Notes under the pieces: generated by a model
Told to the model about the DNA's origin: nothing
What the model saw: the letters and a program-made list of their open reading frames with translations, nothing else
Database searches by the model: none
Translations under genes and position numbers: made by a program
Part shown: positions 5,750 to 40,028 of the stretch, one piece after another
How positions within the stretch are numbered: the first letter of the stretch is position 1
Layout: every line of letters begins with the position of its first letter
Assembly: GCF_044324875.1 (NCBI RefSeq)
Contig: NZ_CP172187.1
From: Escherichia coli
Lineage (GTDB): Bacteria > Pseudomonadota > Gammaproteobacteria > Enterobacterales > Enterobacteriaceae
Reading direction: 5' to 3' (one strand)
DNA length: 64,000 nt

Positions 5750-5990
5750 GCGGGCTGTGCCGTGCCTCCATCGTAGCCGGGCTTCTGCGGGCGGGTTGCA
5801 AGGTAAGGTGAACCGCTGCGGTCACCCGGTCCCTCCTTCCCGTCTGCCGTGATTTTCCGGTCGTTCACCCGCTCAGATTTCGCGGTCTCACCCTCCAACT
5901 CCCGCCAGCCGTGTGCGTCAGGCTGCGGCTTCCCTTGCGCCCTTGCAACCCTGCAGGCCCGGCAAAGATGGAGGCACGGCACCGCCCGGT
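5750..5990. other. Long-range inverted repeat in a GC-rich 415-bp intergenic region upstream of klcA; candidate single-strand hairpin promoter/ssi element
   Basis: GCCGTGCCTCCATC (about 5763) pairs with GATGGAGGCACGGC (about 5968) about 190 nt apart, with further local palindromes; no ORF of note. Confidence 0.4.
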
Positions 5991-6024
5991 GTCGCGGAAT
6001 ATGTGAACAACGGAGGAAAACATC

Positions 6025-6450
6025 ATGCAATATGCGAAACCTGTCACTCTGAATGTTGAAGAGTGCGACCGTCTGTTTTTTCTGCCTTACCTGTTTGGCC
6101 AGGATTTTCTGTATGCCGAGGCATCTGTGTACGCGCTGGCGAAAAAAATGATGCCGGAATATGACGGCGGATTCTGGCACTTCATCCGCCTGCCGGACGG
6201 TGGCGGTTACATGATGCCGGATGGCGACCGTTTTCATCTGGTCAACGGTGAAAACTGGTTTGACCGTACGGTCAGCGCCGATGCCGCAGGCATCATTGTG
6301 ACTTCCCTTGTGATTAACCGTCAGTTGTGGCTGTACCACGACAGCGGTGATGCAGGACTGACTCACCTGTACAGGATGCGCGATGCGCAGTTGTGGAGCC
6401 ACATCGAATTTCACCCCGAATGCAATGCGATTTACGCGGCACTGGACTGA
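6025..6450 (+). CDS. klcA: KlcA/ArdB-family anti-restriction protein
   Basis: 141 aa with family hallmarks FLPYLFG...[16 protein letters not shown]...[11 protein letters not shown], matching my recollection of KlcA/YfjX-type proteins. Confidence 0.8.
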
Positions 6451-34789: not shown

Positions 34790-35101
34790 ATGAAGGTGGG
34801 GGTAATAAGAAATAAGCACGCAGAGGACTTCAGAAAAATATGTCTTCTGTTTATCCGGTTAACGAGCAATGTATTAAAACTGTTTCCTTTTGCTATGGTG
34901 ATGTGCTCTGTGGTGTGGTTTTATTTTTGCCCTGAACATATTCTCTCAGACATTGTTAACGACTGGCACGATGCAGATACACTGGAAAAAATACGGATTG
35001 TCAGACTGTATCTGAAGACGTCTTTTATTCTGACAGTGGTGGGCGTTGTTATTTCATATCTTTCTTCAGATAAGTTTATGCCCGTTAAGCGCAGGAAATG
35101 A
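34790..35101 (+). CDS. Hypothetical membrane protein (103 aa), accessory ORF between traU and trbC
   Basis: AT-rich ORF with two predicted TM helices. Confidence 0.45.
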   Translation: MKVGVIRNKHAEDFRKICLLFIRLTSNVLKLFPFAMVMCSVVWFYFCPEHILSDIVNDWHDADTLEKIRIVRLYLKTSFILTVVGVVISYLSSDKFMPVKRRK

Positions 35102-35163
35102 GTCTGGCGGTTCTCATAAATATAACCGTGTGTGCATGTGTACAATATAAGTAAAGGTGCGTT

Positions 35164-35685
35164 ATGGGATTTTTCTCGTTTTTACGAAAGATAAGTAATA
35201 AAGAAAAAGGGGTGGTTATCTATGAGAAGCAGTGGTTCTCACTGCTGGAAAAGGTGAGTGCTTTTGATGAGGTCAGACAATGGGCTGAAAGTAATGGTGG
35301 AGCATATTATCCTCTGCTGGAGTGTCGTCGGCTTACAGACAGTGAAGATGTCAGGAAATCAGAGGATATACTGAACCGACTGGAGTTTATTGACAGAAGA
35401 TTTCGGGAATTCATCAGCATTATGTCTGAACATATTAATAATGATAAAACTAAATCCATGTGGGAGAGGGAATTGTCTGAATATCCACCGGAAAAAATAT
35501 ACCAGGTCCGGAGAGAGGGAGAACATCTGTCATTAAAAAATTACGGTGATGATATTACTCTGAACAGAGATACCGCCGTGGCTACGGTGCAGATTACTGT
35601 CAGCAGAAAATGCATTACTCAGGAAGAAATGGATGAATTATATGCATTGTCTGAGAGACTGAAAGAAAAGTGCGCCGGTAATTAA
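35164..35685 (+). CDS. Hypothetical protein (173 aa), accessory ORF between traU and trbC
   Basis: AT-rich ORF; no recognised motif. Confidence 0.45.
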   Translation: MGFFSFLRKISNKEKGVVIYEKQWFSLLEKVSAFDEVRQWAESNGGAYYPLLECRRLTDSEDVRKSEDILNRLEFIDRRFREFISIMSEHINNDKTKSMWERELSEYPPEKIYQVRREGEHLSLKNYGDDITLNRDTAVATVQITVSRKCITQEEMDELYALSERLKEKCAGN

Positions 35686-35711: not shown

Positions 35712-36350
35712 ATGAGCCGGAAAATATTTGTACTTTTTGCCCTGACAGCAGGACTGTTTATTTCTGCCCATGCTTCGGAAAATGTGAATACACCCGAAAA
35801 CCGCCAGTTCCTGAAGCAGCAGGAAACACTGAGTCAGCAGTTACGTGAAAAACCGGACACACAGCTGCAGGCATGGGCAGAACAGCAGGTCAGGGCGAAT
35901 CCCCTTCAGCATTCCGATAACCAGTTTCTCGATGAACTGGTCCGTAAACAGCAGGCTTCGCAGGGTGATAAACCACAGCAGGGTGCCCTGTATTTTGTGT
36001 CGTTTTCCATACCCGAAGAGGGGCTGAAACGGATGCTGGGTGAAACCCGGCACTACGGTATTCCGGCCACGCTGCGGGGCATGGTGAACAACGACCTGAA
36101 GACCACCGCTGAAGCCGTGCTGTCCCTGGTGAAAGACGGCGCGACTGATGGTGTTCAGATCGACCCGACGCTGTTTTCACAGTACGGCATTCGCAGCGTT
36201 CCGGCCCTGGTGGTGTTCTGCAGCCAGGGGCACGACATCATCCGGGGAAACCTGCGCGTCAGGCAGGCGCTGGAGAAAGTGGCCGCCACAGGAGACTGCC
36301 GGCAGGTGGCTCAGGGACTGCTGGACGGCACCGGGGATAAATCGCAATAA
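35712..36350 (+). CDS. trbC: TrbC
   Basis: ORF-track frame 35697..36350; ATG at 35712 gives a 212-aa protein with signal peptide (MSRKIFVLFALTAGLFISAHA). Confidence 0.85.
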   Translation: MSRKIFVLFALTAGLFISAHASENVNTPENRQFLKQQETLSQQLREKPDTQLQAWAEQQVRANPLQHSDNQFLDELVRKQQASQGDKPQQGALYFVSFSIPEEGLKRMLGETRHYGIPATLRGMVNNDLKTTAEAVLSLVKDGATDGVQIDPTLFSQYGIRSVPALVVFCSQGHDIIRGNLRVRQALEKVAATGDCRQVAQGLLDGTGDKSQ

Positions 36351-36406
36351 GTTTACCTGCAGGCTATTACCGGATTGACCCGGACATCCGTGCACTGGTG
36401 TCCGCG

Positions 36407-36718
36407 ATGAACGTGCATGGATTTCGTACATATGCGTCCTGTCAGGGGCATGGCTTCCCTGTTACGAAACTGCCGCCTTATATCGCCTTTTCCTGTCCGG
36501 TAAAAATGGCTGCCCTTCTGGAGCAGCGACTGCGGCAGGATGCTGAATCAGCAATACCACGTCTGACATGGGGATGGTCGGTGAAGGGGACTTTTAACAG
36601 TGATTTTCAGCTTTGCTTCCGGCTTCAGCCTGAAAGCCCTCATCACTGGTATCACCGGTACTGTCGCCGCTCACTGCGTGCAGACTTCAGGACGCTGGTC
36701 CGCTTACTGAATCCGTAA
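36407..36718 (+). CDS. Hypothetical Cys/His/Trp-rich protein (start uncertain)
   Basis: ORF-track frame 36398..36718; the frame stays open upstream of the first ATG. Confidence 0.4.
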   Translation: MNVHGFRTYASCQGHGFPVTKLPPYIAFSCPVKMAALLEQRLRQDAESAIPRLTWGWSVKGTFNSDFQLCFRLQPESPHHWYHRYCRRSLRADFRTLVRLLNP

Positions 36719-36742
36719 ATCTGTTCCCGTAAGGAGGCATTG

Positions 36743-37165
36743 ATGGCGCTGACAAAGAAGCAGCGGGAAAAACTGCGTATGAAATTCGGCGGTCGTTGTG
36801 CGTACTGCGGCTGTGAACTGCCGGAAAAAGGCTGGCATGCCGACCATGTTCAGGCGGTGCTCCGCAAGTCAGAGCAGTGCATGAAGGCTGCAGAAAAGCG
36901 CATTTTCAGGCTGAAATCCACCGGTGATGTTTTCAGACCGGAGGCCGACTGTCCGGAAAACCTCGTCCCGGCCTGTGCGCCGTGCAACCTGCTGAAAACA
37001 ACATATTCGCTGGAGATGTTCAGAACGCAGGTGTCCCTGCAGGTTGAACGGGGGCGAAGAAGCAGCGTGAATTTCAGGACCGCAGAACGGTTCGGGCTGA
37101 TTCAGGTGGTGAACAAACCAGTCGTGTTCTGGTTTGAGCAATATCAGAGGGAGAGTGAGGTATGA
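36743..37165 (+). CDS. HNH endonuclease
   Basis: CAYCGCEL...HADHV...CAPCNLLK motif set; ATG at 36743 follows AAGGAGG. Confidence 0.75.
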   Translation: MALTKKQREKLRMKFGGRCAYCGCELPEKGWHADHVQAVLRKSEQCMKAAEKRIFRLKSTGDVFRPEADCPENLVPACAPCNLLKTTYSLEMFRTQVSLQVERGRRSSVNFRTAERFGLIQVVNKPVVFWFEQYQRESEV

Positions 37166-39012
37166 AACGTCTTCTGCCATTGCTGCTGGGGCTGGCAGTC
37201 AGTGTGGCACAGGCTGACAGCAACAGTGATTACCGGGCGGGTTCTGATTTTGCCCGTCAGATTCAGGGGCAGGGTACAGGCAGTATTCAGGGCTTTAAGC
37301 CACAGGAGAGTATCCCCGGCTATAACGCGAATCCGGACGAGACAAAATATTACGGTGGAGTGACTGCCGGCGGGGATGGCGGCCTGAAAAATGACGGCAC
37401 CACGGAATGGGCGACCGGTGAAACCGGAAAAACTATCACAGAGTCATTCATGAACAAGCCGAAAGACATTCTTTCACCGGATGCGCCGTTTATCCAGACC
37501 GGCAGGGATGTGGTGAACCGGGCTGACAGCATTGTGGGAAACACCGGGCAGCAGTGCAGTGCGCAGGAGATAAACCGCAGTGAATTCACAAACTATACCT
37601 GTGAGCGGGACACGATGGTGGAGGAGTACTGCACACGGACTGCCAGTATCACCGGGGACTGGAAATACACGGATGAATATCGTGAGGTGACGATACCGCA
37701 CTCACAGTTCCAGTTCAGTATGAACGGGCTGAAACTGGTGTTCAGTGTCACGGCTCCGGTAACCGGTACAGTGGAAAGTGCATCATTGTCTGTATACGCC
37801 GCTTTTTTCTTCCTGAATTCTCGTTATACCTTCATGAATTCGACGTTCAATGTTGGCCTGGTAAACGGGCAGTCGGGTACTTTCCCCTTGTCCGGGGCGA
37901 CAGGTTTGCAGGTGACACAGGGGCAGGTTCTGACCGGTAGTGGCTGTACTGCAAACGGTAATTGCCTCCCGCACGGGAACGGTGACAGGAAAGTCTATGA
38001 ATCGCTTGTCAGTGGTGCTTCCACCTTTACGCTGAAACTCAGGATGAAGGTCCGTGATAAAGAATGGGTTCCCCGGGTGGAGTGGGTGGAGAGTTGTCCG
38101 TTTAATAAAGCGGATGGCGTGCTGAAAGGCACTGAGTGTTCAGAGCCGGGGGGTACGAAAACGGGTGTGATGGAAGGTAAACCCTGGAGCATCACACAGG
38201 CATGCTGGGCATACCGGGATAAATATGTCACACAGTCCGCAGATAACGGCACCTGTCAGAAATATGTCGATAATCCGGCCTGTACGCTGGCCTCACGTCA
38301 GTGCGCGTTTTATTCCGATGAGGGAATCTGTCTGCATGAGTATGCCACGTACTCCTGCGAGTCCAGAACATCAGGAAAAGTGATGGTCTGTGGTGGTGAT
38401 GTCTTCTGCCTTGACGGTGAATGCGATAAGGCACAGAGCGGAAAAAGCAGTGATTTTGGTGAGGCTGTATCACAGCTGGCTGCGCTTGCCGCCGCAGGTA
38501 AGGATGTTGCCGCCCTGAATGGTGTGGATGTCAGGGCTTTCACGGGCGAGGCGAAATTCTGCCGTAAGGCCGCAGCCGGCTTCAGTAACTGCTGTAAGGA
38601 TGGTGGCTGGGGTCAGGATGTGGGGCTGGCGAAGTGCAACAGTGAAGAAAAGGCACTGGGAAAGGCAAAGGACAACAAACTGACGGTGAGTGTGGGCGAG
38701 TTCTGTTCGAAAAAGGTACTCGGTGTCTGCCTGCAGAAAAAGCGCAGCTACTGCCAGTTTGATTCGAAACTGGCGCAGATAGTCCAGCAGCAGGGGCGTA
38801 ACGGGCAGCTGCGTATCGGGTTTGGCAGCGCCAAAAGTCCTGACTGCCGTGGAATAACCGTGGATGAACTACAGCGTATTAAGTTCGACCAGCTGGACTT
38901 CACTAACTTCTACGAAGACCTGATGAATAACCAGAAAATCCCGGACAGTGGCGTTCTGACGCAGAAAGTGAAAGAGCAGATTGCTGACCAGCTGAAGCAG
39001 GCAGGACAATAA
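37162..39012 (+). CDS. traN: TraN, outer-membrane mating-pair stabilisation protein
   Basis: 616 aa, signal peptide, Cys-rich. Confidence 0.9.
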   Translation: MKRLLPLLLGLAVSVAQADSNSDYRAGSDFARQIQGQGTGSIQGFKPQESIPGYNANPDETKYYGGVTAGGDGGLKNDGTTEWATGETGKTITESFMNKPKDILSPDAPFIQTGRDVVNRADSIVGNTGQQCSAQEINRSEFTNYTCERDTMVEEYCTRTASITGDWKYTDEYREVTIPHSQFQFSMNGLKLVFSVTAPVTGTVESASLSVYAAFFFLNSRYTFMNSTFNVGLVNGQSGTFPLSGATGLQVTQGQVLTGSGCTANGNCLPHGNGDRKVYESLVSGASTFTLKLRMKVRDKEWVPRVEWVESCPFNKADGVLKGTECSEPGGTKTGVMEGKPWSITQACWAYRDKYVTQSADNGTCQKYVDNPACTLASRQCAFYSDEGICLHEYATYSCESRTSGKVMVCGGDVFCLDGECDKAQSGKSSDFGEAVSQLAALAAAGKDVAALNGVDVRAFTGEAKFCRKAAAGFSNCCKDGGWGQDVGLAKCNSEEKALGKAKDNKLTVSVGEFCSKKVLGVCLQKKRSYCQFDSKLAQIVQQQGRNGQLRIGFGSAKSPDCRGITVDELQRIKFDQLDFTNFYEDLMNNQKIPDSGVLTQKVKEQIADQLKQAGQ

Positions 39013-39035: not shown

Positions 39036-39284
39036 ATGATGAAGGTCATATTCACGTCGAACCGTTTTATTGATTTTCTTATCCGGCTTTTGATTACAGC
39101 GATTGTCATTTCCCCGGTAATTATCTGGTCGTGGGATACGGTAAAAGAAACCACGGCAGACGGGATGCCTGCCGCTGCTTTCGTTATCCTTTACTCCGGT
39201 GTGCTCCTGTTTATTCTGTATTTTTGTTTTTCTGCCCTGACCTGCAGAAAACCGATGAAAGAAAAAATGATGAAAGGAATGAAG
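39036..39284 (+). CDS. trbE: TrbE-like small membrane protein; reading frame continues into traF without a stop
   Basis: Upstream portion of ORF-track frame 39036..40028; no in-frame stop separates it from the traF start at 39285. Confidence 0.45.
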
Positions 39285-40028
39285 ATGAATAAAGCATTAC
39301 TGCCACTGTTACTCTGCTGCTTTATTTTTCCGGCGTCAGGGAAAGATGCAGGCTGGCAGTGGTATAACGAGAAAATAAATCCGAAGGAAAAAGAAAATAA
39401 ACCTGTACCTGCAGCCCCCCGTCAGGAGCCGGATATTATGCAGAAACTGGCCGCGCTGCAGACGGCAACAAAGCGGGCGCTGTACGAAGCCATTCTGTAT
39501 CCCGGCGTGGATAATTTTGTGAAATATTTCCGGCTGCAGAATTACTGGACTCAGCAGGCCGGGCTTTTCACCATGAGTGCTAAAAAAGCTATGCTGGCAC
39601 ATCCCGAACTGGACTATAACCTGCAGTACAGCCATTACAACGGCACGGTCCGGAACCAGCTGGCGGCAGACCAGGCGCAGCAGCGACAGGCCATTGCGAA
39701 ACTGGCTGAACACTACGGCATCATGTTCTTTTACCGGGGGCAGGACCCCATCGACGGGCAGCTGGCGCAGGTCATTAATGGCTTCAGGGATACCTATGGT
39801 CTGAGTGTTATTCCCGTTTCCGTGGATGGTGTGATTAATCCGCTGTTGCCGGATTCCCGGACTGACCAGGGGCAGGCGCAGCGCCTCGGCGTGAAATATT
39901 TCCCGGCCATGATGCTGGTTGACCCGAAACAGGGCAGTGTTCGCCCGTTATCATACGGCTTTATTTCGCAGGACGACCTGGCAAAACAATTCCTGAACGT
40001 TTCTGAAGATTTTAAACCCAATTTTTAA
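39285..40028 (+). CDS. traF: TraF, thioredoxin-fold pilus assembly protein
   Basis: Internal ATG giving MNKALLPLLLCCFIFPASG..., 247 aa. Confidence 0.85.
   Translation: MNKALLPLLLCCFIFPASGKDAGWQWYNEKINPKEKENKPVPAAPRQEPDIMQKLAALQTATKRALYEAILYPGVDNFVKYFRLQNYWTQQAGLFTMSAKKAMLAHPELDYNLQYSHYNGTVRNQLAADQAQQRQAIAKLAEHYGIMFFYRGQDPIDGQLAQVINGFRDTYGLSVIPVSVDGVINPLLPDSRTDQGQAQRLGVKYFPAMMLVDPKQGSVRPLSYGFISQDDLAKQFLNVSEDFKPNF

Follow-up and report, generated by a model that had tools for sequence, protein, structure and literature searches.

F-like plasmids can carry genes in their transfer operon that are absent from F itself, and the junction between trbC and traN is one place where such genes are found. 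Here we describe this junction in a 64,000-nucleotide stretch of Escherichia coli DNA (contig NZ_CP172187.1 of assembly GCF_044324875.1; hereafter the window), in which two small genes lie between trbC and traN: ORF1, an open reading frame (ORF) for a small cytoplasmic protein, and a gene for a predicted HNH endonuclease. An earlier note on this DNA had placed an HNH gene and a second ORF in this position on the strand of the operon, and both ORFs are confirmed there. We conclude that the trbC-traN junction is a permissive slot holding two unrelated accessory genes that were acquired at different times. The features of the locus are as follows.

35712..36350, plus strand: trbC, the upstream neighbour (Pfam TrbC_Ftype, E = 1.9e-19; RefSeq annotation of the identical plasmid NZ_CP033634)
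36347..36718, plus strand: ORF1, a 123-codon frame for a small cytoplasmic protein (frame of its relatives, family alignment)
36347..36349, plus strand: mutated ORF1 start codon, ATA (ATG in all eight relatives read)
36398..36409, plus strand: first canonical in-frame starts left in ORF1, GTG 36398 (codon 18) and ATG 36407 (codon 21)
36719..36742, plus strand: 24-bp spacer with the HNH ribosome-binding site (RBS; Shine-Dalgarno AAGGAGG at 36731-36737)
36743..37165, plus strand: HNH endonuclease gene, 140 amino acids (aa), ATG 36743 to TGA 37165 (identical to RefSeq WP_001229309.1)
36730..37148, plus strand: segment with phage homology at the nucleotide (nt) level, RBS and ORF up to ...FEQYQ (80% to Salmonella phage g341c)
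36636..37358, plus strand: 723-bp patch with zero mismatches to pHNEP28_cfr (NZ_KT845955; alignment of carriers)
37162..39012, plus strand: traN, the downstream neighbour (Pfam F_T4SS_TraN, E = 1.3e-78)

Both genes have routine RefSeq annotation. E. coli plasmid pTB-nb3 (NZ_CP033634) has the same region at 100% identity, and RefSeq lists on it trbC, a hypothetical protein, an ‘HNH endonuclease signature motif containing protein’ (WP_001229309.1) and traN. The ATG of traN and the stop codon of the HNH gene share ATGA at 37162-37165. A promoter scan of the region gave no promoter-like site, a terminator scan gave terminator-like sites at background level only, and Rfam had zero matches, results that give no indication of a separate transcription unit or an RNA element. 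ORF1 and the HNH gene are presumably transcribed within the long tra transcript, with the HNH gene having a strong RBS of its own and being coupled to traN. The GC content of the pair (53-58%) is similar to that of the tra genes, and composition thus gives no sign of recent import. Minus-strand ORFs at 36177-36431, 36704-36847, 36850-36987 and 36869-37180 were taken as antisense shadows of conserved plus-strand genes and set aside. The two plus-strand genes are real and not chance ORFs, because they are conserved in hundreds of plasmids and are under purifying selection. A literature search covering both genes, their accessions, HNH genes in tra operons and TYW3 on plasmids returned no relevant paper.

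To define the slot we used a 951-bp query across the trbC-traN junction, which matched 3135 PLSDB records; 537 of these cover at least 80% of the query, and in the remaining matches that were sampled the 5′ end of traN is the sole part matched. The locus shows presence/absence polymorphism among related plasmids, with four slot states. In the empty state, which is that of most F-like plasmids, the trbC stop overlaps the traN start (NZ_CP069883). A second state has ORF1 only, as a 126-aa frame with its ATG overlapping the trbC stop (AP026744, CP148560 and NZ_CP026403). The third, with ORF1 followed by the HNH gene, is that of the window and related carriers, and the fourth, with the HNH gene only, is seen in pSLT-like Salmonella plasmids. 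In the latter, the 21 nt after trbC (ATGACATTCCCTGCGGAATAA) resemble the first codons of ORF1 joined to its end, and ORF1 has probably been lost there by an internal deletion that left a 6-codon remnant. Searching by tblastn, we found ORF1 at ≥80% identity in ~687 plasmids, and the HNH gene at ≥95% in 539 plasmids and at 90-95% in a further 183; from these counts, roughly 150 plasmids would be in the ORF1-only state and about 180 in the HNH-only state. In a set of 5426 complete E. coli genomes, a match is present in 439 and the two genes occur together in 308, nearly all on plasmids. The earlier note had set the pair outside the minimal F tra gene set, and this holds: neither gene is in the F gene list used as the tra set (PMC5102898), neither is present in F and conserved across F-like operons, and most of the matching F-like plasmids lack both. 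Nor does the pair occur at identical junctions in all F-like operons, as the 537 of 3135 records and the empty site of NZ_CP069883 show. Two of the ORF1-only plasmids, CP148560 (2916-3140) and NZ_CP026403, have an unannotated minus-strand ORF of ~73 aa between ORF1 and traN, combining a CxxC...CxxC zinc-ribbon N-terminus with a hydrophobic C-terminus (MSSQLQNCVDCGKALSRTATTCGNCSS...); in AP026744 this ORF is reduced to a remnant.

The order of arrival can be read from the end of ORF1. Its homologues end in ...LLKS(L/V)S..., and the copies adjacent to the HNH gene end in ...LLNP*, so that an ancestral tail ...LLKSLSE has become ...LLNP beside the HNH gene. This change argues that the HNH gene was inserted after ORF1 was already present and replaced the last ORF1 codons.

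The HNH protein matches the PHROG family phrog_2118, annotated as HNH endonuclease, at E = 8.7e-58, and PHROG families annotated as endonuclease VII at E = 4.4e-10. In Pfam it stays under the cut-offs, with 18.9 bits against 21.4 for PF01844 and 14.3 against 27.5 for HNH_5, because an insert of ~37 residues splits the motif. The motif comprises the CxxC pairs C19/C22 and C78/C81, H32-A-D34-H35, N73, N82 and K85. Across eight homologues with 54-91% identity, C19, C22, H32, D34, H35, N73, C78, C81, N82 and K85 are invariant, and so is a C-terminal module NFRTAxRFG...KPvVFWFE (NFRTAERFG...KPVVFWFE in the window); the conserved part at the C-terminus spans 50 aa. The residues expected of an HNH nuclease are all present: H32-A-D34-H35 aligns with the DH of the solved HNH protein 4h9d, N73, N82 and K85 are kept, with ‘ENLVPACAPCNLLK’ aligning with ‘GNVVPACKECNNRK’ of 4h9d, and C19/C22 and C78/C81 form the putative zinc site. 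A sequence search of the Protein Data Bank (PDB) returned 4h9d at an insignificant E = 1.1 although the motif layout is the same, and a match to HslV in that search was judged spurious. No known DNA-binding domain was found by Pfam, PHROG, NCBIfam and PADLOC scans, and a single-sequence AlphaFold2 model was unusable, with a predicted local distance difference test (pLDDT) score of 44.5. On this motif evidence the protein, in which every catalytic residue is intact, would be a beta-beta-alpha-metal nuclease stabilised by zinc.

Assignment of the HNH protein to a defence system was considered and rejected. PADLOC gave generic HNH-domain matches, the best at E = 5.7e-4 over ~20-30 residues of the motif, and NCBIfam TIGR02646 scored 21.2 bits against a cut-off of 52. 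The families hit by these weak matches (PtuB of Septu, PDC-M01B, retron HNH and IscB) are matched over the short motif only, and the neighbours of the gene are tra genes.

Outside F-like plasmids, the closest relatives of the HNH protein are copies in Salmonella genomes named HNH endonuclease (up to 91-92% aa identity), which are probably prophage-borne. Gp24 of Salmonella phage g341c (Lederbergvirus) has 87% aa identity, with 80% nt identity over RBS and ORF, and E. coli phages Bas77-80 have 81% aa identity; in all, 179 phage records contain a homologue. The nucleotide homology to phages is confined to 36730-37148, which marks the extent of the imported unit. The final codons after ...FEQYQ vary by context and contain the ribosome site of the next gene. 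The HNH gene is phage-derived. Its phage homologues lie in different surroundings, in the P22-like phage g341c with erf, abc2 and kil as neighbours in the early-left ‘ea’ accessory region, and in Bas77 at the end of the genome, where two small ORFs separate it from the terminase large-subunit gene just downstream. Homologues are found in 2701 plasmid records, of which 2450 are conjugative; the remoter ones (54-62%) are on IncHI1, IncHI2 and Klebsiella megaplasmids, in small co-directional gene arrays outside the tra operon. The IncHI homologue (57-62%; locus L021 of IncHI2, 5890-6423, and locus L025 of IncHI1, 5893-6417) has ~37 extra N-terminal residues and always adjoins a DUF6012 gene; it follows a large PAPS-reductase-family gene within a long array of small unknown genes that all point the same way. 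This array may be a leading-region-like accessory island.

Selection on the HNH gene is strong, with a ratio of non-synonymous to synonymous divergence (dN/dS) of 0.06-0.10 among the window, pSLT and phage copies, synonymous sites being saturated in the comparison of plasmid with phage. The same protein, WP_001229309.1, occurs on backbones that differ in trbC, ORF1 and traN. Among six carriers, mean nucleotide identity is 98.1% for the HNH gene, 93.2% for ORF1, 88.6% for trbC and 79.7% for the bulk of traN. We looked for a trace of co-conversion and found, relative to pHNEP28_cfr, the identical 723-bp patch with identity decaying away from the HNH gene; on its flanks, 100-bp windows of ORF1 fall to 75% and the centre of traN to 32-37%. 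The whole trbC-traN stretch is, however, mosaic. One carrier, an Escherichia albertii plasmid (L011, NZ_CP117648, 1943-2365), has a frameshifted, unannotated HNH gene beside an intact ORF1, the reverse of the window, as expected in a cycle of gain and decay.

For ORF1, a word-indexed search gave 44 close relatives and an exhaustive search gave 296 representative clusters at E ≤ 1e-3, with a conserved core of D11 ... GFRTYASCQGHG (invariant) ... PY.AF ... W77. No phage homologue of ORF1 was found, against the 179 phage records for HNH, and ORF1 itself had no match in Pfam, NCBIfam and PADLOC scans and only noise in PHROGs (E ≥ 0.046). The family is present on 855 plasmids, 781 of them typed as conjugative, and its hosts include plasmids of Escherichia, Klebsiella, Morganella, Providencia and Vibrio, plus two further contigs. 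All eight informative contexts are inside F-type (MPF_F) transfer operons, on the tra strand and mostly with overlapping start and stop codons. At least five different positions in the operon are occupied.

trbC/traN: the window; Klebsiella pneumoniae pZZ100-KPC (55% identity); a metagenomic contig (56%)
traW/traU: E. coli pYLMB49a; Vibrio harveyi pvh3
trbB/traH: Providencia
traH/traG: Morganella
traR-like/traP

The dN/dS of ORF1 is 0.15-0.21 among close relatives and 0.18-0.28 against the distant pZZ100 copy. This family is conjugation-operon-specific and without literature, and is the more original part of the finding. Some remote members were noted in passing. Proteins P0054, P0161, P0165 and P0181 have tandem duplications of the ORF1 domain (339-435 aa), with one N-terminal fusion to a PLD-type (PLDc_2) nuclease domain, a hint that nucleic acid is what the ORF1 domain acts on or senses. 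Another homologue, 38% identical and on a metagenomic contig (locus L019, 1-1485, SRR20722002_739890), overlaps the stop codon of a bacterial gene for type IA topoisomerase (Topoisom_bac with Zn ribbons), a DNA-processing neighbourhood outside a recognisable tra operon. Five family members weakly match Pfam DUF6919 (best E = 0.0059), possibly a related uncharacterised family.

The start codon of ORF1 is mutated in the window. Eight relatives were read (five with ORF1 and HNH, three with ORF1 only), and in each of them ORF1 begins with an ATG that shares bases with the trbC stop (CAATGA). The window has CAATAA at this overlap, so that the codon at 36347-36349 is ATA and the trbC stop is TAA where the relatives have TGA; at position 36349 it differs from the five other ORF1 and HNH plasmids aligned. 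NZ_CP033634 and AP026457/NZ_CP128973, all 100% identical over the 951-bp query, share this ATA, and RefSeq nonetheless starts the ORF1 coding sequence of NZ_CP033634 there. ATA is a permitted but very weak initiator. The ORF1 start had previously been put at ATG 36407, which turns out to be internal codon 21, with the family start upstream. Neither GTG 36398 nor ATG 36407 has an upstream Shine-Dalgarno sequence, and starting at either would drop the invariant Asp11 and most or all of helix 12-23. ORF1 is therefore read here, from the sequence of the start region, as probably silenced or nearly so in the plasmid lineage of the window, with the HNH gene left intact. Against this, ATA may still permit some coupled re-initiation of ORF1. 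The lineage comprises at most 13 PLSDB records and at most 8 E. coli records at ≥99% identity.

The fold of ORF1 suggests a distant relationship. An AlphaFold model built from an 87-sequence alignment has a pLDDT of 92.4, and the fold together with an Asp ... TxxSCxGH motif suggests a resemblance to the catalytic core of the TYW3/Taw3 methyltransferases, which depend on S-adenosylmethionine (SAM); this suggests that ORF1 may bind SAM or a nucleotide-like ligand. The TYW3 fold, as compared here, consists of an N-terminal extension, an SHS2 and a RAGNYA domain, with an invariant His at the end of RAGNYA strand 3. Searched against PDB sequences, the ORF1 family profile has two TYW3 proteins as its top matches (E = 0.016 and 0.17), over the N-terminal Asp and the motif. 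Sixteen of the 87 relatives weakly match the TYW3 family PF02676 (best E = 0.0028), by far the family matched most frequently; the one match inspected covers profile positions 15-53 only. A search with a 45-aa fragment, meant to gather TYW3 sequences for a comparison of profiles, returned none. The catalytic signature of the TYW3 class is an N-terminal Asp, an (S/T)xSSCxGR motif and a His (PMC5311493). In ORF1 the motif reads T28-Y-A-S31-C32-Q-G34-H35, with T, S, C and G kept; in the 87 relatives C32 and H35 are ≥90% conserved and G34 is invariant, and the profile alignment pairs D11, which does not vary within the close family, with the Asp of TYW3. ORF1 had been called Cys/His-rich; it does have 4 Cys and 5 His in 123 aa, but no zinc-cluster signature, and only C32 and H35 are conserved family-wide, so this content reflects the TYW3-like motif.

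Other observations weigh against the TYW3 link. ORF1 itself has no match to PF02676 even at E ≤ 10, its relatives being sub-threshold, a Foldseek search of the model against PDB gave nothing significant, and the motif departs from that of TYW3 by S to A and R to H changes. On sequence inspection, without residue-level structural alignment, there is no obvious conserved His ~25 residues after the motif Cys. On balance, remote homology of ORF1 to TYW3 is probable. Bacteria do not make wybutosine (PMC4417183), so any substrate of ORF1 must differ from that of TYW3/Taw3.

The explanation that we favour overall, with a probability of about 0.55, is that the HNH gene is a selfish nuclease gene, homing-like or hitch-hiking, and that ORF1 is an unrelated accessory gene. 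ORF1 would have entered the slot first, from a family of small cytoplasmic proteins nearly confined to F-type transfer operons. The HNH gene would have come later from a temperate-phage-type gene pool as a bare unit of RBS and ORF, landing between ORF1 and traN and clipping the last ORF1 codons. It would persist and spread among F-like plasmids by recombination as a short patch, without being part of the transfer machinery. Spread could be homing-like, with the nuclease cutting HNH-less plasmids and so stimulating gene conversion, or the gene could hitch-hike on frequent recombination between co-resident F-like plasmids. Several points weigh against this explanation. Since the trbC-traN stretch is mosaic throughout, the identical patch is not specific evidence for homing, and ordinary recombination explains it equally well. 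The whole HNH protein, including its C-terminal module, is highly conserved across contexts without shared flanks, and its conservation across phage ea, terminase-proximal, IncHI and F tra contexts is a better match for an activity independent of context than for site-specific homing. The small size of the protein leaves no recognisable extra DNA-binding domain that would serve a long homing site; its nuclease activity is a prediction, and its target and cleavage site are hypothetical. Entry exclusion and incompatibility also limit encounters between F-like plasmids. Finally, the strong purifying selection would be just as well explained by a function that serves the plasmid.

That last possibility is the main rival: the HNH gene may be kept because it benefits its carrier, as a context-independent nickase or structure-specific nuclease acting early in the life of a mobile element, for instance against the DNA of competing phages or plasmids, in processing branched DNA or to stimulate recombination, and made together with the tra genes in donors and new transconjugants. 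The very low dN/dS (0.06-0.10) over plasmids and phages is in its favour, as are the 2701 plasmid records with a homologue (2450 conjugative), which take in IncHI1, IncHI2 and Klebsiella megaplasmids, the position of the g341c gene by erf, abc2 and kil, the Bas77-type position near a terminase gene, which resembles that of known packaging-associated HNH proteins, and the matches to endonuclease VII PHROGs (E = 4.4e-10). Yet F and ~2600 of the 3135 matching F-like records lack the gene and are still typed as conjugative, at least one copy is frameshifted, no conserved partner gene accompanies it, and its PADLOC and NCBIfam matches (PtuB, retron HNH, IscB) are weak and at domain level. We consider a carrier benefit possible, though somewhat unlikely. 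A comparable question arises for ORF1, whose family might consist of genuine, dispensable components or modulators of F-type conjugation next to which the HNH gene was later inserted. Eight informative contexts that all lie in MPF_F operons, at five positions and in several genera, agree with this, as do the 781 conjugative plasmids among 855 carriers, the purifying selection and a conserved catalytic-like motif; F and most F-like plasmids nevertheless lack the family, pSLT-like plasmids have probably lost most of the gene, its start codon is gone in the lineage of the window, and some distant members are found beyond any recognisable tra operon, such as the one that follows a topoisomerase gene. 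We regard such a role as unlikely. A more ambitious combination, in which ORF1 would be a bacterial branch of the TYW3-type non-Rossmann SAM-enzyme fold dedicated to F-type operons, binding SAM or a related nucleotide and modifying or sensing nucleic acid or a Tra component during mating, and the HNH protein an active homing nuclease driving conversion among F-like plasmids, is speculative and distinctly unlikely.

Both genes could also be neutral, slowly decaying passengers of a tolerant intergenic slot. The lost ORF1 start, the frameshift in E. albertii and the probable ORF1 deletion in pSLT-like plasmids would fit, and other unrelated cargo occurs in this slot and in a neighbouring one; but both genes have dN/dS values well short of 1, which for HNH extends to the comparison of plasmid with phage copies, and the HNH catalytic residues are all invariant, which leaves this view improbable. 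The earlier note had suggested that the pair could be a selfish homing-type endonuclease cassette, or a nuclease that may act in transfer or defence. This is supported in part: the HNH gene is a free-standing phage-type gene whose distribution fits a selfish element, and the two-gene unit is not supported. Such a cassette, a nuclease moved jointly with a partner, regulator or immunity protein, would account for the genes being adjacent, co-directional and together in 537 PLSDB plasmids, and a PLD-type nuclease domain is joined to the ORF1 domain in one distant protein. Each gene is nevertheless found without the other, ORF1 homologues occupy four other tra-operon positions without an HNH neighbour, and HNH homologues lie in phages and IncHI plasmids with no ORF1 beside them; ORF1 has no phage homologue and HNH is in 179 phage records. 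The HNH gene is also much less diverged than ORF1 among carriers, and in the window it is intact beside an ORF1 that has lost its start. On this distribution the cassette idea is largely refuted, and we reject it as highly improbable.

F-like plasmids, whose transfer operon is usually viewed as a fixed gene set, are major vehicles of resistance and virulence genes. The locus described here shows that the operon has tolerated slots in which foreign genes are read with the tra genes. If active, the HNH nuclease could promote recombination among F-like plasmids, and this could extend to the neighbouring traN alleles, which contribute to recipient specificity. The ORF1 family is widely distributed, with a core that plausibly resembles that of an enzyme. 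Nothing suggests that transfer needs either gene, and the locus is mostly ordinary plasmid mosaicism plus one small family.

Two further observations were made elsewhere in the operon. Between traU and trbC (34790-35685, plus strand) lie two other ORFs not found in F, one of 103 aa that is membrane-like and one of 173 aa, with no Pfam match and a GC content of 39-42% against ~55% for the tra genes. This second cargo slot, with a clearer foreign-DNA signature than trbC-traN, also varies among plasmids: pO26_2 has 8 bp between the genes, and E. albertii plasmids have other ORFs. Downstream of traN (39036-40028, plus strand), a 1-nt difference from NZ_CP069883 near the 3′ end of trbE removes its stop, giving a 330-codon trbE′-traF reading frame in which the ATG of traF is retained; on the identical plasmid NZ_CP033634, RefSeq annotates traF alone and no trbE.

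Known systems can be set beside both genes. The TYW3/Taw3 proteins compared with ORF1 (SSO0622, 1tlj; PH1069, 2drv; AF_2059, 2qg3; APE0816, 2dvk) are about 190-210 aa in length against its 123 aa. For the HNH protein, the terminase-associated type of HK97 gp74, with the Geobacter protein 4h9d as a solved example, is likewise a small single-domain protein with the pattern CxxC...DH...N...CxxCN..K. Proteins of the gp74 type assist cos cleavage. A packaging role is inapplicable to the plasmid, which has neither a terminase nor a cos site; the neighbours in the window are ORF1 and traN, and only the phage relatives in Bas77-80 are near a terminase gene. Gp24 of g341c is closer. It shares with the window protein its family, length, catalytic and zinc residues and C-terminal module, and it too is a small free-standing gene between unrelated genes with overlapping stop and start codons; it differs in lying in a phage ea region and not a conjugation operon, in its unrelated flanks and in its tail past ...FEQYQ, and it is as uncharacterised as the window protein. 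The pSLT-type protein (WP_001229397.1; in the phage record its relative is named PSLT094.1N) is 91% identical in aa and occupies the same slot upstream of traN with the same stop/start overlap, and its similar tail before traN suggests the same ancestral insertion. It differs in that ORF1 is gone, save the probable 6-codon remnant, and the synonymous divergence (dS) from the E. coli copy is about 0.6. The free-standing homing genes of phages (T4 seg/mob, T-odd and SPO1-type HNH) differ from the window gene in that its setting is plasmid-to-plasmid and not phage co-infection, that any target site, cleavage or marker exclusion is hypothetical for it and that it has no recognised accessory DNA-binding domain. 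In their organisation and distribution they are much like it, being intergenic, co-oriented and patchy, near-identical on diverged backbones, flanked by a short identical patch and occasionally present as pseudogenes.

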